Positions 27,219 through 63,484 are shown, counted from the stretch's first letter. The stretch: DNA of 64,000 bases from Candidatus Saccharimonadales bacterium (GCA_035280845.1 DATEFB010000004.1:18341-82340); one strand, 5' to 3'. Program-made: numbers and translations. Notes: generated by a model not told the origin, from the sequence alone.

Positions 27219-28511
27219 TTGATCAAGCGTTTGGTGCCCGCGGCTCTTGTCGCGGTAAGCACCATGGTGCTGACGTTGTCCGTATCGGTTCCTGCAGCAG
27301 CGAGCGACCGTAGCGTCGTGGTGGATTCGGCCTCGGCCGAACATTGGACCGGCAAGGTCCAGGCCACGACGCCACACATCAAGCACGTCCCCGAGTGCCA
27401 GAACACCGGTTGCGATTCGGTCAGCCTGCGGGTTGACCTGCCGCGCCGGCTCGAAGGCGCGCCGGGTGGCGTGCACGTCAAGCTCCAGCTCCTGGGCGCC
27501 ACGCCCGACGACAGTGTCGGTCTGGTGATCTACAACAAGAAGCAGGTCGTTGCGCACTCGTCGGCGCAGATCGGGCCCGCGCGGTCCGTCCTGTTGCCTA
27601 GTGTGGACGCCAGGTACACCGTGTACGTGTACTACAACCCCATGGCGCGCGAGCTGGGTTCGCCCAGACTCAAGTACGAAGCGTACGCGCGCTACGAGGC
27701 CAAGCCCACGTACCCGGGCCCGACGAGTGAACTGCTCCCGGACCTCCAGGCGCTCCCGCAGCGCTACGTGACGTTCGAGAGTCCGGTCACGTTCTTCGAT
27801 GACACGGTGTCGTCGGAGTACCCGTCGTGCTTCAGAAGTGAAGCAGAGGAAGAGCCGTTCGCCAAGCTCTGCTTCCGATTCGGCCAGGCCATGGCCAACA
27901 TCGGCAAGGGCCCGATGGACGTGCGGTACTCGACGCCTCCTGGCGACAGGCCGCACGAGGTGGCCGGCTACCAGCGCGTCTACCGCACCGACGGTACGTT
28001 CTACGACCTGCCGTCGGTCGGCACCATGCACTACCACGAGATTCACTCGCACTACCACTTCGAAGACTTCGCGGTCTCCGAGTTGTGGACGGTGGATTCG
28101 AACGGCAACCTGGCACAGAAGGTCGCCAGTGGCAGCAAGAACGGGTTCTGTGCTGCCGACACCGAGCTGTTCTGGTGGAACGCGAACGGCCCGCGGGCCG
28201 ACGTGCAGTCGTTCCCGGCGCCGCGCTGCCTGGAGCCGCAGACCGTCGACCCCGACGGCACTGCGCACTTCAAGCACGGCATCAGCACCGGCTGGGCCGA
28301 CGAATACTGGTGGGCGCTGCCCGACCAGATGATCGACGTGCACGGTCTGCCCGACGGGACCTACGCGCTCGTTACCAAGGTCGACCCGGCCGGGAAGATC
28401 AAGGAGACGGACGACAGCAACAACTGCAACCGCATCACCGTGACCCTGAGCGGACTCGCCACTTCGGCCCCAGCGGCCGCCGCCCTGGCTGGTTCTGCTC
28501 GCCCCTGCTAG
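27219..28511 (+). CDS. Secreted lysyl-oxidase-family (copper/LTQ amine oxidase) protein
   Basis: 430 aa, TTG start with GAAAGAGG upstream, signal peptide ...SVPAAASD. The C-terminal half is collinear with the animal LOX catalytic domain: LPDLQALPQRY, MHYHEIHSHYHFEDF (Cu site), SKNGFCAADT (LTQ Lys), GWADEY (LTQ Tyr), DGTYALVTKVDP...ETDDSNN. Confidence 0.8.
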   Translation: MIKRLVPAALVAVSTMVLTLSVSVPAAASDRSVVVDSASAEHWTGKVQATTPHIKHVPECQNTGCDSVSLRVDLPRRLEGAPGGVHVKLQLLGATPDDSVGLVIYNKKQVVAHSSAQIGPARSVLLPSVDARYTVYVYYNPMARELGSPRLKYEAYARYEAKPTYPGPTSELLPDLQALPQRYVTFESPVTFFDDTVSSEYPSCFRSEAEEEPFAKLCFRFGQAMANIGKGPMDVRYSTPPGDRPHEVAGYQRVYRTDGTFYDLPSVGTMHYHEIHSHYHFEDFAVSELWTVDSNGNLAQKVASGSKNGFCAADTELFWWNANGPRADVQSFPAPRCLEPQTVDPDGTAHFKHGISTGWADEYWWALPDQMIDVHGLPDGTYALVTKVDPAGKIKETDDSNNCNRITVTLSGLATSAPAAAALAGSARPC

Positions 28512-31244: not shown

Positions 31245-31649
31245 TCATTGCGTGCAGCCCAATCTTTCGGCGACGCCCGGGACCGCCCTGAGGCTTGCCG
31301 CCGTCATGTTGGTGGTGTCGGTGCCCGGGCTGATCTCGGCCATGGGCTTTCCGCCGATGCTCAGCACCGTGAACGACGTGGGCATTGCGGCCTCTGGTGC
31401 CACCGGCCCCGCGATCGTGATGTTGGTGCTGCACCCCTGTAGCCGAACATTGGACAGCCAGCGGGTTGATTCGTAGTAAGGAATCCCCGCCACGCCGTAG
31501 CCGGCGGCCACAGTTTGCCGCGTCAGGACATTCTGCTGTTCCTGTGGGACGAAGCCTGCTGTAGTGGTAGGTGCAGGCTCGGGCTCGGACCCGCTGCATC
31601 CCGCAAGCAATACTGCTGCCACGCTTAGTGACAACAAGAGGGCTTTCAT
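31245..31649 (-). CDS. Lipoprotein, function unknown
   Basis: 134 aa. The signal peptide has a lipobox (MKALLLSLSVAAVLLAGCSG), followed by a Pro/Thr linker. AAGGAGAG Shine-Dalgarno upstream; GC3-rich codons. Confidence 0.7.
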   Translation of the reverse strand: MKALLLSLSVAAVLLAGCSGSEPEPAPTTTAGFVPQEQQNVLTRQTVAAGYGVAGIPYYESTRWLSNVRLQGCSTNITIAGPVAPEAAMPTSFTVLSIGGKPMAEISPGTDTTNMTAASLRAVPGVAERLGCTQ

Positions 31650-35336: not shown

Positions 35337-35837
35337 TTATGGCAGGTTGATCTGAGGTGCTGCGCGCTTGAACTCTGCGACCGCCAGACCGAGCGGGGCA
35401 ATCGCTATCGCCCGCAGGTACACGACGCGCTCACCCTTTGCCTGGGTGTCGCCGACCATGTACATGGCCACAGGCAGTTGGAAGCTGACGCTCGTGGCAC
35501 AGGCCAAGGCCCATCGCTGAACGTCAGATGTGCCAGGGCCGACATACTGTTCGGCAACACGGTCCTGGTCGCGCACCTTCTCGGGGCTGATGGTTGTGTC
35601 GGCGATGATCTTGCGAAGGTCAGCCGCGCTGATCCCGCGTCCGGGCCACATGCCCGAGTTTGCCGCGATGTACAACCCCTCCGCCGGGTACAGGCACGCG
35701 TACGTGTGAAACATGGTGGGCTCTACGACATCACCATGCAGCATCGGGCCCGAGATGTGGACGTCGTAGCACGACACCCGCTCGTTGGGCGGCAACTGGC
35801 CAAGGTGCCAACGTATCGCCCGCTCGATTGTTCTCAA
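35337..35837 (-). CDS. Hypothetical protein, no family recognised
   Basis: 166-aa ORF (MRTIERAIRWHLGQLPPNERVSCYDVHISGPMLHGD...). This frame has the G/C-ending codons; the overlapping + strand ORFs look like antisense artefacts. Confidence 0.55.
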   Translation of the reverse strand: MRTIERAIRWHLGQLPPNERVSCYDVHISGPMLHGDVVEPTMFHTYACLYPAEGLYIAANSGMWPGRGISAADLRKIIADTTISPEKVRDQDRVAEQYVGPGTSDVQRWALACATSVSFQLPVAMYMVGDTQAKGERVVYLRAIAIAPLGLAVAEFKRAAPQINLP

Positions 35838-58739: not shown

Positions 58740-59201
58740 GTGAAACGAGCAGATAACAAATCTCACTGCCCTGTCAACTTTGCTCTCGAGTCTTTTGGCG
58801 ACCCGTGGACCCTTTTAATTGTCCGCGACATTGCCTATTTTGGCAAAAAAACGTATGGCGATTTCTTGGAGTCTGAAGAAGCGATTGCCACCAGTGTTCT
58901 TGCCAGCCGCCTTATTGCCATGGAACAAAAAGGAATCCTGCTTAAAACCCAGCACCCGACTGACCGGCGTAAAGAAATCTACACGCTAACCGAAAAGGGC
59001 CTAGATTTGATTCCAGTGATCCTGGAGATGTCGGGTTGGGCCACGCATTACGACCCTCACACTGGCGCACCAAAGCAGTTTGTCGCCGCTGTCTATGCCA
59101 ACCGTGACGCTATGTTTGCCCTTGTTCGCGAGACCGTTCAAGCTGGCGGTTCCATTTTTGTCGGGCCCAATAGCGTGGTCCGCAAAATGGCCGCACAGTA
59201 A
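58740..59201 (+). CDS. HxlR-family transcriptional regulator
   Basis: GTG 58740 (VKRADNKSHCPVNFALESFGDPWTLLIVRDIAYFGKKTYGDF...). The longer track ORF from 58440 is antisense to the FAD oxidase gene. Confidence 0.8.
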   Translation: MKRADNKSHCPVNFALESFGDPWTLLIVRDIAYFGKKTYGDFLESEEAIATSVLASRLIAMEQKGILLKTQHPTDRRKEIYTLTEKGLDLIPVILEMSGWATHYDPHTGAPKQFVAAVYANRDAMFALVRETVQAGGSIFVGPNSVVRKMAAQ

Positions 59202-59217
59202 CTGGTATACTAAAGGT

Positions 59218-59946
59218 ATGAAGAAGTTTGTCATTATTGCTATTGCAGTTGTTGTGCTTGCCGGTGGTGGCATTGCGGCTTTTATGTTCCTGAATAAAAA
59301 AGAAGAGACTCAGGCTCCGCAAACGCAGCAGCCTGCGAAAGATGCTTTTAATAAAACGCAATATTCTATTACCGAACCGGGCAGCCCTTGGTGGCTTGTC
59401 AACAAGCAGCGGCCAATCGCCGACGACGACTATGCTCCTGGTGAGCTGGTCGCGCCAAATATCAAGTTACGATGGGCGCCAATCGCCGAATCCATGCAGG
59501 TAAGTAAGCAGATTGCGCCAGCACTCGAACAAATGTACAAAGGGTCGCAGACGGCAGGGTTTGACCTAATGCTGATCAGCGGCTACCGTTCGGCCAAAAC
59601 CCAGAAAGAACTGTACGATGGCTACGTGGCGCAGCACGGCCAGGCAGAGGCAGACCGGTTTAGTGCCCGTCCCGGAACCAGCGAGCACCAGACTGGCCTG
59701 GTTGTAGACCTCGGTCGTGCCGACAAAAATTGCGAGCTCGAGACCTGCTTTGGCGAAACGGCCGAAGGCAAATGGCTGGCAGAGCACGCTCACGAGTATG
59801 GTTTTATCATCCGTTACCCGCAAGGCAAAGAAGCTATTGTGGGGTATCAGTACGAGCCATGGCACTTGCGCTACGTTGGCCCTGAGCTGGCGGCTGAATT
59901 ATTCCGGACTAAACAAACGATGGAAGAATTTTTCGTAGGCAGGTAA
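59218..59946 (+). CDS. M15B D-alanyl-D-alanine carboxypeptidase (VanY-like), membrane anchored
   Basis: ATG 59218 (MKKFVIIAIAVVVLAGGGIAAF). SGYRSAKTQKELY, ARPGTSEHQTGLVVDL, EYGFIIRYP, YEPWHLRYVG. Confidence 0.8.
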   Translation: MKKFVIIAIAVVVLAGGGIAAFMFLNKKEETQAPQTQQPAKDAFNKTQYSITEPGSPWWLVNKQRPIADDDYAPGELVAPNIKLRWAPIAESMQVSKQIAPALEQMYKGSQTAGFDLMLISGYRSAKTQKELYDGYVAQHGQAEADRFSARPGTSEHQTGLVVDLGRADKNCELETCFGETAEGKWLAEHAHEYGFIIRYPQGKEAIVGYQYEPWHLRYVGPELAAELFRTKQTMEEFFVGR

Positions 59947-59997
59947 GCAAAAAACCCGCCACCGGGATGGCGAGCGGGGTGTCTGATATTTGAGCTG

Positions 59998-60042
59998 GCC
60001 GTGGCCACGAGTGCCGGTGTCCGAGCAATTCGTGGCCACGGC
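59998..60042 (-). terminator. GC-rich hairpin downstream of the HIT gene
   Basis: Perfect 13-bp stem gccgtggccacga / tcgtggccacggc with a 19-nt loop, 10 nt after the stop. A second weaker stem with a T-run on the minus strand lies at about 59947-59975. Confidence 0.55.
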
Positions 60043-60052
60043 TGTGGCAGCG

Positions 60053-60475
60053 TCAGGCGTGGCTGCCGCACAAGGTGTGCGCAGCGGCCATCTGGTTCAG
60101 CAGTTCGATGATCGCCGCCATGCCCAGTTCGAACGACGCCATGGTCTCATCCTCGTGGTCGCGCGTCAGGACCCAGAAGTGCACGTGTTGCACTCGCTGG
60201 CCCGCCCGACGACCGACGTTGATGCTGATGTTGTAGTTCTCATGCGATTCCGGGACCTGGTCGATCAGATCCATCAGCGTCTGCATCCAGAACTGCGGCA
60301 GGTCGCGCAGCGACTCGATGTGCTCCTTGGGGATCACGAAGTATGCGTGTTCGATCACCTCGGTCGTCCCCGGACGCAGCACGGCGATCAGGTACGCGTC
60401 ATCATTCTGCGCGATGAGCTTGACCATGCCGTTCGCAACACAGAACGGACAACGTGGCCGGGCCTGCTGGCCCAT
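60053..60475 (-). CDS. HIT-family (histidine triad) nucleotide hydrolase/transferase
   Basis: 140 aa: CPFCVANG, FVIPKEHIESL, histidine triad VQHVHFWVL. AGGAGG 5 nt upstream of the ATG. Confidence 0.8.
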   Translation of the reverse strand: MGQQARPRCPFCVANGMVKLIAQNDDAYLIAVLRPGTTEVIEHAYFVIPKEHIESLRDLPQFWMQTLMDLIDQVPESHENYNISINVGRRAGQRVQHVHFWVLTRDHEDETMASFELGMAAIIELLNQMAAAHTLCGSHA

Positions 60476-60560
60476 GGTCCACCTCCTGGTGTGATGGAAT
60501 TTCAGACGTTGTTGATTATATAATCTTATTGAAATTTTTAAAATAGAGTTGTATCAAATA

Positions 60561-60589
60561 TTGACATAAACGTAATATAATTATATTAT
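60561..60589 (+). promoter_or_regulatory. Sigma70-like promoter overlapped by a 16-bp perfect palindrome
   Basis: TTGACA (60561-60566), 17 nt, TATTAT (60584-60589). The palindrome taatataattatatta spans 60573-60588, about 25 nt upstream of the channel ORF. Confidence 0.4.
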
Positions 60590-60614
60590 ATTTTCGTCAA
60601 CCTTCAAGACACGA

Positions 60615-61148
60615 TTGGACGTGATTAAGGTGTTGCGTACTGTGTTGGGGCCTCTTGCCCGCTTCATCGTCGCAATGACCAGCAGGCTCTACTGGGTGCT
60701 TCTGGCCTACGTCATCACCCGCGCCATCGCCGTGCTGGTGATGATGAAGCTGGAGGGCTGGAAGCCCGTTGAGGCGTACTGGTGGGGCGAGGTCTCCTCG
60801 CTGACCATCGGTTACGGCGACTACGCGCCGAAGTCAACTACGGGCCGCCTGTTGGCGGGTCCCTTCCAGTTCTTCTGGGTGTTCTACTGCGGTCCAGCCA
60901 TCATCGGCCATGTCGTGGCGTTCCTGTTCCGAAACATCCACATCCTGACGCACAGCGAGCAGGAGTGGCTCTTTCGGGTGACGGGCATCGTGTACGACTG
61001 GGTCCGGTGGATGGTTCTGGTCCTTCAGAAGATCGCCCTCAAGCTAGGTGTCAGTGACCTGCCACCGCTGCCACACGCCGACGGGAGCGGTCTTCCCAGG
61101 CTGTGCCCGGAACAGGCGCCTGACACCGATTTCGCAGAGCAAGTCTGA
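60615..61148 (+). CDS. Minimal two-TM potassium channel (KcsA/Kcv-like pore)
   Basis: The K+ selectivity filter SLTIGYGDYAP is flanked by two hydrophobic helices, followed by a ~70-aa tail without a recognisable RCK/CNB domain. Start uncertain (TTG 60615, GTG 60621/60630, ATG 60675). Confidence 0.75.
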   Translation: MDVIKVLRTVLGPLARFIVAMTSRLYWVLLAYVITRAIAVLVMMKLEGWKPVEAYWWGEVSSLTIGYGDYAPKSTTGRLLAGPFQFFWVFYCGPAIIGHVVAFLFRNIHILTHSEQEWLFRVTGIVYDWVRWMVLVLQKIALKLGVSDLPPLPHADGSGLPRLCPEQAPDTDFAEQV

Positions 61149-61313
61149 CATGCTCCACTCGTCCCTACGAGGGCTGACGCAGGCCTTTCCCATACCCGGG
61201 AGAGGCCTTCGTCATATCTTGGTATAAAAATGGCCTCGCTATGGAGGCATGTATTGCAAAATCTAGCCCGTGACGGGCGGCCGGCAGAACGCCAGGCCAC
61301 CCGTCACGAGTTG

Positions 61314-61949
61314 TCAGTGCCCTTGCTGTATCAGCTGGGCAGCCGCGCAGGCCAGACGGATCATCCACTGGTGGTCGGGCTCGCGCTGGGCGAGCTTCTC
61401 ACCGTGCGCACCGTCCAGGAGTGCCAGGATGTCTGCGATGCTCATCCACTTGAAGTCGAGCACCTTGCCCTCTTCGAGCGGCATCGTCGTCGGGTCGAGG
61501 TCGGGCAACACGAGCAGGAAGTTGTGCGAGAACGAGCGGTCCTGCCACCCGTCTTCGGTGGTGAAGTTGCCGCGCGTGACGCCGATGTACCGGCAGAGCG
61601 GCGTGTGGATGATGTCACGGGTCAGACCAGTGACGCCACCCTCTTCGTTCCCCTCCCGGATGCCCGTGTCGAAGGCGTGCAGGATGATGTCCAGCGGCGG
61701 CTCGTTGCCAAGCGCAGCCGGCACTCGTGCCGACATGTGCCCGGCCCAGCCGATCGGGTCACGCGCATCCCGCATGTGACCGCACTGCGGACCCCGGAAC
61801 TGCGTGAGCAGGTTGCCCCGCCCATCGGTCACGAAGAAGTGCACACAGGCGTGGTAGTCGCCGTCGGCGTGGACCTTCTTCTTGCCCTTGACCTCGCCGG
61901 TGGGTTCACCAGCGGAAGTCAGGACCTCGATCAATTCGTCTGCCACCAC
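61314..61949 (-). CDS. NUDIX hydrolase (divergent Nudix box)
   Basis: About 211 aa from GTG 61949/61946 (GAAAGGA upstream). VHADGDYHACVHFFVTDGRGNLLTQFR and Nudix box GH...IREGNEEGGV. The track ORF extends artefactually to 62342 across the neighbouring gene. Confidence 0.7.
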   Translation of the reverse strand: MVADELIEVLTSAGEPTGEVKGKKKVHADGDYHACVHFFVTDGRGNLLTQFRGPQCGHMRDARDPIGWAGHMSARVPAALGNEPPLDIILHAFDTGIREGNEEGGVTGLTRDIIHTPLCRYIGVTRGNFTTEDGWQDRSFSHNFLLVLPDLDPTTMPLEEGKVLDFKWMSIADILALLDGAHGEKLAQREPDHQWMIRLACAAAQLIQQGH

Positions 61950-61988
61950 AGGTCCTTTCTCGGTGTGTGGCGTGTGTAGAGCCTGGCG

Positions 61989-62036
61989 TGTAAAATCAAA
62001 GTAAGTAAAGTTGATTTTACAAAAACTGATTTTACA
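61989..62036. promoter_or_regulatory. Candidate operator: inverted plus direct repeats of TGATTTTACA
   Basis: tgtaaaatcaa (61989-61999) and ttgattttaca (62011-62021) form a perfect 11-bp inverted repeat with an 11-nt spacer. A third copy, tgattttaca, lies at 62027-62036. All sit in the divergent spacer between the two Nudix genes. Confidence 0.45.
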
Positions 62037-62069
62037 ATATTTTCGACAAAAAAGGAAGTAGAATACAAT

Positions 62070-62729
62070 ATGCACTATCTGCAAAAATACATTCTTGATA
62101 GGTTGCGGTTTGAACAGCCTCTTAGTTACAGTGCAATGCTTCCCGATAATGTCGAGAGCAGCTTGTTCCAATATCACCTGAAGCTGCTGCAAAAGGATGG
62201 CCTGGTAGAAAAGCAGGGCCGCGGCATTTATGCGCTGACCCACGAGGGCCAGGCGGCACTCGAATATATGTCTATTGGCCGGACCACGCAGGTTCGCATG
62301 CCAAAGGTCATTACGTATACCCTGCTGACGCATAAAGGCCAAGCTCTATTGCTTCGCAAACAAAAAGAACCCTACCGCAACCTGCTAGAGCTGATTGGCG
62401 GTAAGCTTCATTTTGGCGAATCGGCCGAACACGCGGCTCAGCGTGATGTGCACGAGAAATCCGGACTTTCCATCCCCCTGCCTGTACTTGCCGGGGTTGC
62501 AAATGTTATGATCTTGCAGCAGGGCAAGCCGCTTACTCACATGATTGTGTACGTGCATACTCGTGAATTGGCTGCATTGCCGCAAGAATTGCCAGTCACC
62601 GTTCAATTTTACCCAACTGATAGCCTGGCTGGCCGCGATGACCTTGCGCCCACAACTCTGCCTCTGCTCAACGCGATTGCTGCCCGCGGCAAAACGCCCT
62701 TTGTCCTGACGTTGAACGTCGAACTTTAG
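62070..62729 (+). CDS. Winged-helix plus NUDIX two-domain protein (putative ligand-sensing regulator)
   Basis: 219 aa with an N-terminal wHTH (LSYSAMLPDNVESSLFQYHLKLLQKDGLVEKQGRGIYALTHEG), then a Nudix fold with the box GGKLHFGESAEHAAQRDVHEKSGL. Confidence 0.7.
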   Translation: MHYLQKYILDRLRFEQPLSYSAMLPDNVESSLFQYHLKLLQKDGLVEKQGRGIYALTHEGQAALEYMSIGRTTQVRMPKVITYTLLTHKGQALLLRKQKEPYRNLLELIGGKLHFGESAEHAAQRDVHEKSGLSIPLPVLAGVANVMILQQGKPLTHMIVYVHTRELAALPQELPVTVQFYPTDSLAGRDDLAPTTLPLLNAIAARGKTPFVLTLNVEL

Positions 62730-62734
62730 ACCCT

Positions 62735-63484
62735 ATGGAAATTCCCAAACCAGAACACACCGGTATTACTTTTGAGCGCAACTACGGCAGCCGTCACATA
62801 GAGCTGCCCGACGGGCGCACGGTCACCAGCATGTCAGATCCCAGTTGGGATGAGTTTGCCATGTCGTTTATTGACCTCGAGGTGCAGGGCGGGCCAGGCG
62901 ATTATATAATTACCCCCGAACTTATAACTTCGGCAGAATTTGCGCCCGCAGACACAGCCGAATCAATGTACGTGGTGCATGAGCGCACGCGGTTTGCCCA
63001 ACGGCTCACCACACTGTACCCAGAGACCACGCTCCTTCTTGGTACGGCGGTGATAGATCCTGCATATGCAAAACCCCGAAACGCCATTTTATTTTTACAG
63101 AACGGCCAGGAGGTCGGCCGGACGTACAAAACGCCTACGCTCAACCGTGCGGAGGGCCTGGCGTTTCATCAGCCAGAGTACCCGCAATTAGCGCGGCCAG
63201 AGCCCGGCATTATGCCTATTATTTGCTCGGACTTGGTGAACAATCCTCAGGTAGACGCACGCGTGCACACGCTTTTGGTGAGCGCATGTTGGGGAGCTCC
63301 GGCCGGGCATCCGGGCGTACTTGCCTCGCCCGAGCACCGGCATTTGCAGTTGCTGGCTGGCATAACTGCCGACCTTTTTGCTAGCAACGCTGGACTGCGC
63401 ACTATTGTTATGGCCGACCGAGTGCCGCCAACCGGCATCTCGGCCTCGCCATTCAACTTTGTTGCGCGGCCTAGTGCACGCTAA
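62735..63484 (+). CDS. Carbon-nitrogen hydrolase (nitrilase superfamily)-like protein
   Basis: 249 aa with a candidate Glu-Lys-Cys triad in IITPEL, RTYKTPTL and PIICSDL. 5 nt after the wHTH-Nudix gene. Confidence 0.5.
   Translation: MEIPKPEHTGITFERNYGSRHIELPDGRTVTSMSDPSWDEFAMSFIDLEVQGGPGDYIITPELITSAEFAPADTAESMYVVHERTRFAQRLTTLYPETTLLLGTAVIDPAYAKPRNAILFLQNGQEVGRTYKTPTLNRAEGLAFHQPEYPQLARPEPGIMPIICSDLVNNPQVDARVHTLLVSACWGAPAGHPGVLASPEHRHLQLLAGITADLFASNAGLRTIVMADRVPPTGISASPFNFVARPSAR

Follow-up and report, generated by a model that had tools for sequence, protein, structure and literature searches.

Three neighboring genes rich in third-position GC in a Saccharimonadales genome were probably brought together by different routes

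Within a 64,000-nt stretch of DNA from a Candidatus Saccharimonadales bacterium (GCA_035280845.1 DATEFB010000004.1:18341-82340), here called the window, positions 60053-61949 hold three adjacent open reading frames (ORFs). Their annotation from the ORF listing and Pfam predicts a histidine-triad (HIT) protein, a K+ channel with two transmembrane segments (2-TM), and a Nudix-fold protein of 211 amino acids, which we term Nudix211. Nucleotide pyrophosphates are substrates of both HIT and Nudix enzymes, and the presence of these two enzyme types on either side of an ion channel raises the question of whether the three genes work together. An initial annotation of the window had described them as one foreign block inserted beside a resident gene for a winged helix-turn-helix (wHTH)-Nudix protein, and had speculated that they form a K+-flux module controlled by a nucleotide signal, with three unrelated cargo genes as its fallback. 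We consider it probable that the three genes, all of which are rich in G and C at third codon positions (GC3), were joined by different routes and form no functional module. Nudix211 and the wHTH-Nudix regulator appear to be an old pair, next to which two accessory genes were acquired independently.

The HIT-superfamily gene (60053-60475, minus strand; GC3 0.844) codes for a Hint-like protein of 140 amino acids. The channel gene (60621-61148, plus strand; GC3 0.820) codes for 175-177 amino acids and probably starts at the GTG at 60621, with an alternative TTG start at 60615. Nudix211 (61314-61949, minus strand; GC3 0.849) has a YfcD/IDI-like Nudix fold. These gene positions agree with those first given, except that the Nudix start had been placed at 61985, where a GTG at 61949 or 61946 is to be preferred. 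The domain identities were sound, because Pfam HIT (E 2e-10, 41.6 bits, cut-off 21.5), Ion_trans_2 (E 4.3e-9), and NUDIX (E 1.7e-4, 22.1 bits, cut-off 21.1) all score above their cut-offs, and the motifs VQHVHFWVL, TIGYGD, and IREGNEEGGV are present in the three ORFs as reported. An assembly chimera was considered and ruled out because two independent assemblies, L005 (ENA ERZ27257108) and L006 (Logan SRR5195123), have the same gene arrangement and the same junctions. Other loci are cited below by similar handles.

Evidence on the relationship among the three genes comes from their homologs in other genomes. A search for conserved HIT/channel/Nudix neighborhoods, which the initial annotation had recommended, found none, and its own ground for giving up the module, namely that the homologs do not co-occur elsewhere, is essentially what we observe. 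No relative of the HIT protein is present in any fetched locus (tblastn). The genes beside the channel differ in every lineage, and Nudix211 is missing beside seven of nine channel lineages; conversely, six other Nudix211 lineages lack the channel. The window clade and L001 are the sole cases in which the two genes adjoin, and the common order there is channel, Nudix211, (regulator), and a gene we call orf249. Because the window clade and L001 share this whole synteny, the adjacency represents one evolutionary event.

A different partnership is preserved in more lineages. The wHTH-Nudix gene (62070-62729, plus strand; GC3 0.57) codes for a protein of 219 amino acids that matches Pfam NUDIX (2.1e-7) and, weakly, wHTH families. 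Eight Saccharimonadales lineages carry it paired with Nudix211. Homologs of Nudix211 (37-60% identity) lie divergently beside homologs of the regulator (55-65%) in L007/L008, L010/L012, L011, L013, L014, L020, and the P0001 contig, the last of which is near-identical to the window; P0005 is an orthologous Nudix211 of 211 amino acids. Across 21 pairs, the identity values of one protein correlate with those of the other (r = 0.69), as co-inheritance predicts.

The spacer between the two genes also carries a putative operator (61989-62036), an inverted repeat of the form TGTAAAATCAA-N11-TTGATTTTACA that is followed by a third half-site, CTGATTTTACA. The exact word GATTTTACA has three copies in the window, all of which fall within 61989-62036. 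In relatives, the shared Nudix211/regulator spacer contains the palindrome TGTAAAA-N3-6-TTTTACA and then a third half-site, ATTTTACA. This exact palindrome was found in seven related loci, always in that spacer, and in 0 of 35 other loci, while the window, L013, and L014 carry variants of it instead. The view that Nudix211 belongs to one foreign insertion is therefore not supported, because in eight lineages the gene has long been paired divergently with the supposed backbone gene, with a shared putative operator and co-varying divergence. We propose that the two genes are an old two-gene unit whose regulator would bind TGTAAAA...TTTTACA palindromes in the shared spacer, controlling both Nudix211 and itself.

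Do the HIT and channel genes belong to the same regulatory unit? Promoter-like and terminator-like sites accompany each of the three GC3-rich genes separately. The 139-bp divergent region between the HIT and channel genes is AT-rich (GC 0.29, as compared with 0.35 for the Nudix211/wHTH-Nudix spacer) and contains a sigma-70-like promoter in each direction: TTTAAA-16-TATAAT for the HIT gene (60515-60542, minus strand) and TTGACA-17-TATTAT, with 11/12 matches, for the channel gene (60561-60589, plus strand). The hexamers and spacing of the channel promoter are kept upstream of channel homologs in L001 and L004. A terminator-like hairpin with a 9-pair stem followed by TTTTTGCTTA lies after the HIT gene (59954-59975, minus strand), and the VanY stop codon at 59946 directly precedes it. 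Two further terminator-like hairpins lie 3' of Nudix211 (61233-61278, minus strand) in the spacer where the channel and Nudix211 genes converge. These predicted signals indicate that the three genes are probably separate, monocistronic transcription units.

Separate transcripts could still answer to one regulator, and the closeness of the three genes would suit a single regulon in which the wHTH-Nudix protein controls all of them. The 21 nt at 60580-60600, which follow the -10 element of the channel promoter, are also 81% identical to 62029-62049, a segment that extends from the third half-site into the wHTH-Nudix promoter. However, GATTTTACA and TGTAAAA/TTTTACA are both absent from the HIT/channel promoter region (60476-60614), channel homologs elsewhere have no regulator nearby, and L001 retains the channel and Nudix211 after loss of the regulator. 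We therefore regard a common regulon as improbable.

These observations bear equally on the proposal that the channel is gated by a ligand of the dinucleoside-polyphosphate or ADP-ribose type whose level the HIT protein and Nudix211 control. Beyond the position of the two enzyme types around the channel, this proposal can draw on the channel's cytosolic tail, which has invariant motifs (THxEQEW, W127/R129/W130, PxPH...DT), and on the second lineage, L001, in which the channel adjoins Nudix211. Against it stand the three separate transcription units with their own promoters and terminators, the lack of an operator at the HIT and channel genes, and the lack of a recognizable nucleotide-binding domain in the tail. 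Moreover, phage homologs with the same THxEQE motif are stand-alone proteins of 120 amino acids. Unlike TRPM2-type channels coupled to Nudix domains, the window has no Nudix-channel fusion and no obligatory pairing of the two genes. A scan of positions 59000-63000 against Rfam at a permissive threshold gave no match, from which we conclude that no riboswitch is present there, and a tRNA scan found no tRNA in the window. The module reading is thus unsupported, given that co-occurrence is lacking, transcription units are separate, PADLOC yields no system-level match, and the Rfam and tRNA scans are empty. Non-co-occurrence has already largely refuted it, and we consider ligand gating of this kind very unlikely.

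If the genes do not form a module, why do they look alike in composition? The anomaly that drew attention to them is genuine: their GC3 values of 0.82-0.85 exceed the window median of 0.573 (standard deviation [SD] 0.063, n=76 ORFs) by ~4 SD, and the six flanking genes fall at 0.55-0.64. Third-position base use is near-identical in the three genes (A3 0.06, T3 0.09-0.12). One explanation is a single, recent en-bloc transfer from a high-GC actinobacterium, with insertion beside the resident regulator. Actinobacteria are the usual host group of Saccharibacteria, the block is contiguous, and a Micromonosporaceae protein is, along with phage proteins, among the nearest channel relatives from outside the Saccharimonadales.

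Several findings nevertheless make such a transfer quite unlikely. Nudix211 is syntenic with the regulator in eight lineages and diverges together with it, and the nearest members of the channel family are on Saccharimonadales-type contigs. Four-fold degenerate sites of Nudix211 are identical between the window and L001 at only 13/45 positions, when ~35% identity is expected from composition, and are thus saturated, yet GC3 is high in both. Neither protein nor plasmid searches found an actinobacterial homolog for Nudix211 or the HIT protein, and no integrase, tRNA, or flanking direct repeats suggestive of insertion accompany the block. Indeed, no donor can be named for the three genes because tblastn against plasmids gave only remote matches for the HIT protein and the channel (a single one for the latter) and none for Nudix211.

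The same compositional excess recurs in the Nudix211 and channel families of other genomes. Nudix211 homologs have GC3 values of 0.71-0.91 in seven genomes in which the adjacent regulator has 0.47-0.58, and channel homologs reach 0.66-0.89 against local backgrounds of 0.37-0.63; in L041, for example, the channel has 0.81 and its surroundings ~0.37. High GC3 is thus a property of the gene families and not of an insertion at this site, and it marks the three genes as part of an accessory, high-GC-like gene class of Saccharimonadales genomes. A simple history of recent insertion and amelioration does not explain an excess that is specific to families. Recurrent replacement from a high-GC pool of hosts or phages, gene-specific codon selection, and biased gene conversion are all possible causes. 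Expression-linked codon bias was rejected because rplS, which lies beside the regulator/Nudix211 pair in L020, has a GC3 of 0.48, equal to background.

Across the genomes examined (L001, L003/L004, L007/L008, L010, L011, L013, L014, L020, L035, and L039-L042), GC3 of the Nudix211 or channel homolog is above the local background in every case, and for Nudix211 the excess is retained although gene order is conserved and synonymous sites have reached saturation. The window itself has three further GC3-rich islands: a gene for a secreted 430-aa protein with a Lysyl_oxidase domain (27219-28511, plus strand; GC3 0.87), one for a 134-aa lipoprotein (31245-31649, minus strand; 0.74), and a 166-aa ORF without a Pfam match (35337-35837, minus strand; 0.77). 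Together with the stretch containing the HIT, channel, and Nudix211 genes, the 64 kb thus have at least four such islands. A broader and rather doubtful idea is that in some Saccharimonadales families, among them the channel, Nudix211, and a number of surface proteins, GC3 stays at an actinobacterium-like 0.7-0.9 over the long term while other genes remain at 0.4-0.6.

Several observations weigh against the view that the three genes arrived by different routes. Their near-identical third-position composition would also fit a common donor. The adjacency of the channel and Nudix211 is kept in two lineages that are ~60-67% identical, and hence has been retained for a long time. Our comparison rests on about a dozen contexts, many of them on short contigs, and in the two closest contigs (the P0001 contig and L001) the DNA upstream of the channel is missing, so that a HIT gene could be located there. 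The palindrome found elsewhere occurs in the window operator in a split form, and the low confidence of the channel model discussed below weakens the assignment of a role to the tail. Even so, the fallback of three unrelated cargo genes agrees best with what we see, given that neighborhoods vary, the HIT gene is a singleton, and transcription units are separate. The three genes of the 2-kb GC3-rich stretch would then be monocistronic and have reached this site along separate paths.

With respect to function, we turn first to the channel. Its predicted layout comprises an M0 helix, TM1, a pore helix, the TIGYGD filter, and TM2, and the filter is invariant in 12/12 aligned relatives. An AlphaFold 2 (AF2) model places helices at residues 23-45, 49-59, and 73-104, with low confidence (predicted local distance difference test [pLDDT] 61). 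As had been noted at the outset, no RCK or cyclic-nucleotide domain is apparent, and Pfam finds no domain at all in the ~80-residue tail after residue 92. Family alignments and the low-confidence model instead suggest that TM2 is followed by a signature, LTHSEQEWLF, a long C-terminal helix (~111-141), and a Pro-rich, acidic tail (PPLPH...CPEQAPDTD).

The closest family is one of phage proteins. The channel matches PHROG 14690 with E 2.9e-20 over profile positions 3-105 of 122, which is much better than its match to Pfam or to any channel in the PDB (E ~1e-7). Comparison by tblastn gives 38% identity (E 3e-18) to gp314 of Acinetobacter phage vB_AbaM_ME3, 31-39% identity over residues 10-115 to proteins of Acinetobacter ME3, Pseudomonas phiPsa397-type, and Aeromonas LAh phages, and 22-23% to proteins of the Streptomyces phages BillNye and Wakanda. 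All of these share with the window channel both the M0/TM1/pore helix/TIGYGD/TM2 layout of PHROG 14690 and the sequence (F/Y)THxEQE directly after TM2. Short relatives, including the Micromonosporaceae protein HEX2417851.1, also carry a C-terminal LPxxPxDT motif. The phage and short actinobacterial channels have ~120-157 amino acids, whereas members of the Saccharimonadales branch have 165-220, owing to a longer Pro-rich tail and to the insertion of ~14 hydrophobic residues (xFDWxRWxVxxLQ), by which the C-terminal helix is extended. Furthermore, the phage channels are phage-borne, whereas those of the Saccharimonadales branch are chromosomal, and the window channel has housekeeping-type neighbors.

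Members of this family are scarce. A word-indexed search of 5.8 billion proteins returned four relatives of the channel. In an exhaustive hidden Markov model (HMM) search of 1.84 billion cluster representatives, only six scored E<=1e-30, and 223 reached E<=1e-10. Those full-length relatives that are named come from Saccharimonadales metagenome-assembled genomes (MAGs), and scans with the channel alignment found none in viral contigs or in metagenome contigs. The literature searched held no characterized member among the phage and actinobacterial small K+ channel relatives, and nothing specific on phage K+ channels or on K+ channels of Saccharibacteria. Among channels of known structure, KcsA of Streptomyces lividans, NaK, and Listeria Lmo2059 (4h33) likewise consist of a 2-TM pore with a canonical filter, and a cytoplasmic helix takes the place of an RCK or CNB domain in them. 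This likeness is limited to the pore, for which PDB matches have E values of 1e-6 to 1e-7, whereas the THxEQEW and tail motifs are specific to the family of the window channel. KcsA is not among the best 60 of 194 PDB chains at E<=1, and we see no evidence of pH gating in the window channel. We suggest that this small phage-type channel, with its lineage-specific C-terminal helix and tail, forms a passive, K+-selective pore under a constitutive promoter, and that it would act alone in K+ uptake or membrane-potential homeostasis of an epibiont.

The immediate neighbors of the channel in other lineages have little in common. They include DUF2617 in L003/L004, a lipoprotein and GSP_synth in L035/L036, Exo_endo_phos in L039 and L040, an acetyltransferase in L041, and a polyamine operon in L042. 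In two of these lineages (L035, 3563-5696, with L036; and L042, 5687-10324) the channel lies beside glutathionylspermidine-synthase-like genes and a homologous small lipoprotein, and the operon in L042 codes for spermidine synthase, AdoMet decarboxylase, and ornithine decarboxylase. One family member on a JGI contig (P0015, 312 aa) has two pores in tandem, its single chain containing two TIGYGD units that are each followed by a degenerate post-TM2 motif, WTGAEQD or WTHPRQEW.

The HIT protein has an N-terminal CPFC motif and the triad motif HVHFW. The canonical histidine triad is H-phi-H-phi-H-phi-phi, in which the middle His serves as the nucleophile. The window protein departs from this pattern with H-V-H-F-W-V-L, and alignment with PDB chains places its Trp opposite the third His of HP_0404 and 3oj7. 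The middle His at the nucleophile position is retained, but hydrolysis would be expected to be weaker without the third His, and the protein may be a slow hydrolase or a nucleotide binder. It resembles Hint-branch proteins (H. pylori HP_0404 [4zgl], Entamoeba 3oj7, and HINT1) in the CxxC near its N-terminus and in the first two aligned triad His residues. It differs from them in the Trp and in its C-terminal 30 residues, which are unmatched.

Relatives of this protein are also scarce. The same word-indexed search recovered a sole match, the 100% identical Saccharimonadales MAG protein itself, and the viral-contig scan recovered none. In plasmid and phage collections tblastn detects distant HIT proteins at ~31-35% identity, those on plasmids being mostly from Rhizobium. 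Judging from these searches, the protein appears to be found only in the species of the window, and it would represent a recent, solitary acquisition, a Hint-like hydrolase or nucleotide-binding protein whose triad has changed to HxHxW.

A weak resemblance of the HIT protein to the PADLOC model for the ThsC HIT protein (E 1.1e-5) raises the prospect of an anti-phage or abortive-infection island, in which the channel would be a membrane-depolarizing effector and the HIT protein and Nudix211 would handle a signaling nucleotide. The channel family does include phage members, and accessory genes of odd composition are typical of defense islands. In contrast, PADLOC has no match for the channel or Nudix211 and recognizes no known system architecture, no sensor, cyclase, or TIR gene is nearby, the channel promoter is strong and of a constitutive type, and the locus neighbors are otherwise of the housekeeping type (VanY, HxlR, and MFS, by Pfam). 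Effectors of the CBASS, Thoeris, and Pycsar types differ in that the window has, by PADLOC models, no pair of a signal-producing enzyme and a nucleotide-sensing effector, and the likeness of the HIT protein to ThsC is generic. We give a defense function almost no credence.

Nudix211 carries a divergent form of the Nudix box, whose consensus is G-x5-E-x7-R-E-U-x-E-E-x-G-U. The remnant IREGNEEGGV preserves RExxEE, which is invariant in the family, and a conserved insertion of 13-17 residues in the box makes the G...R spacing 27 instead of 14. The AF2 model is confident (pLDDT 82, predicted template modeling score [pTM] 0.82). Foldseek ranks YfcD (2fkb) first against the PDB at E 1.7e-10, followed by type-1 isopentenyl diphosphate (IPP) isomerases (IDI) at ~1e-8, with TM-scores of 0.6-0.78; of the 160 PDB matches at E<=1e-3, the best 50 listed all have the Nudix fold. 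A profile search also finds YfcD (E 0.0055), and the N-terminal beta-hairpin region aligns in sequence.

The best structural matches of Nudix211 thus belong to the YfcD/IDI branch, and a homolog with 95% identity is labeled IDI by JGI. A role as IPP isomerase was ruled out because the catalytic Cys (E. coli C67) is missing. The family sequence (V/W/I)-A-G-H aligns with the 'vaGH' of IDI chains 1ow2 and 1hx3, and the position of the catalytic Cys67 of IDI is Ala (the 1ow2/1hx3-type chain being of the C67A type). Nudix211 also differs from IDI in keeping the hydrolase-type RExxEE and in carrying the box insertion. Because its fold is closest to YfcD and the IDI Cys is replaced by Ala, the modeled protein is best described as a YfcD-like Nudix hydrolase and not as an isomerase. 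We know of no established substrate for YfcD. The word-indexed search found only four relatives of Nudix211, and more were reached via the regulator and the metagenome scan; in the latter, the Nudix211 alignment detected one true family member, L020, together with distant Nudix proteins. No relatives were found in viral contigs by alignment scan or in plasmids by tblastn.

The regulator combines a wHTH domain (residues ~25-67) with a C-terminal Nudix domain (78-169). The Nudix box of the latter is degenerate, since the consensus REUxEE is replaced by RDVHEK in the window and by REVHEK in its relatives, and PDB profile matches include ADP-ribose pyrophosphatase and MutT. A Nudix-like effector domain joined to a DNA-binding domain is known from NrtR (PMC2330246). 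Like NrtR, the window regulator fuses a degenerate Nudix-like domain to a winged helix, and a palindromic operator, here a putative one, lies upstream of its own gene with a nucleotide-metabolizing target adjoining. The domain order, however, is the reverse of the NrtR architecture (PMC2330246), with the wHTH at the N-terminus and the Nudix domain at the C-terminus. In addition, there is no sequence-level assignment to NrtR, and both the operator sequence and the target, the YfcD/IDI-like Nudix211, differ. By analogy, we infer that the protein is a ligand-sensing repressor or activator with Nudix211 as its target. It would respond to a nucleotide-diphosphate-type ligand, which Nudix211, presumably catalytically intact, would hydrolyze, in keeping with the logic of NrtR.

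Several further features of the regulator family deserve mention. Two distant homologs (~40% identity) occur without Nudix211: in L018 (5415-6350) a canonical NUDIX hydrolase (E 2.4e-15) adjoins in a divergent operon, and in L015 (2049-2885) a NAD kinase adjoins. These neighbors suggest an NAD or ADP-ribose theme for the wHTH-Nudix family. In L001 (1434-1738) the regulator gene has been lost, and operator remnants (GCGTAAAATCAA...CTGATTTTACAAT) and a 45-aa ORF are found in its place. L007 (801-1517) and L008 (1236-1895) hold two metagenome variants of the same regulator gene that code for 238 and 219 aa, the difference being a tandem duplication of 19 aa (LEALPSPLPENIVLGTLES) toward the C-terminus. 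In five genomes (the window, 62038-62072; L010; L011; L013; and L014) the ATG of the wHTH-Nudix gene is preceded at a distance of 7 nt by a -10-like TA(G/C/A)AAT, and the mRNA may be leaderless because there is no room for a Shine-Dalgarno sequence. All genome loci that bear the regulator are from Saccharibacteria/Patescibacteria except for one 2.2-kb contig labeled Magnetospirillaceae. This contig (L010/L012; DATLJN010000036.1, 2216 bp, 'Magnetospirillaceae bacterium') carries a Saccharimonadales-type pair and operator and is probably mis-binned.

Downstream from the regulator, orf249 (62735-63484, plus strand) has a native GC3 of 0.60 and no match in Pfam, NCBIfam, PHROG, or PADLOC. Motifs such as IICSDL and LLVSACWG may point to carbon-nitrogen hydrolases. 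Its counterpart in L001 has 65% identity and is syntenic, lying directly after Nudix211 there.

The HIT/channel/Nudix stretch is therefore not worth following up as a novel channel system gated by nucleotides. What appears to be new, judged from sequence, is the extension of phage-type K+ channels into Saccharimonadales, an NrtR-like regulator of reversed domain order with a YfcD-like target, and a HIT protein with an HxHxW triad. The channels constitute a rare, Saccharimonadales-restricted subfamily that would derive from uncharacterized phage and actinobacterial small K+ channels; they offer a compact candidate for structure-function studies and a marker of gene flow among epibionts, hosts, and phages. 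The family-specific excess of GC3 matters for the interpretation of foreign DNA calls that rely on composition in genomes of the candidate phyla radiation (CPR). If the excess does persist over the long term, it would point either to continuing replacement at fixed loci from high-GC hosts or phages or to gene-specific codon selection in an epibiont, for which translational control via codon choice would be an example. To our knowledge, almost no regulation has been described in this phylum, and the conserved regulator-enzyme pair with its clear operator provides a tractable regulon in Saccharimonadales.

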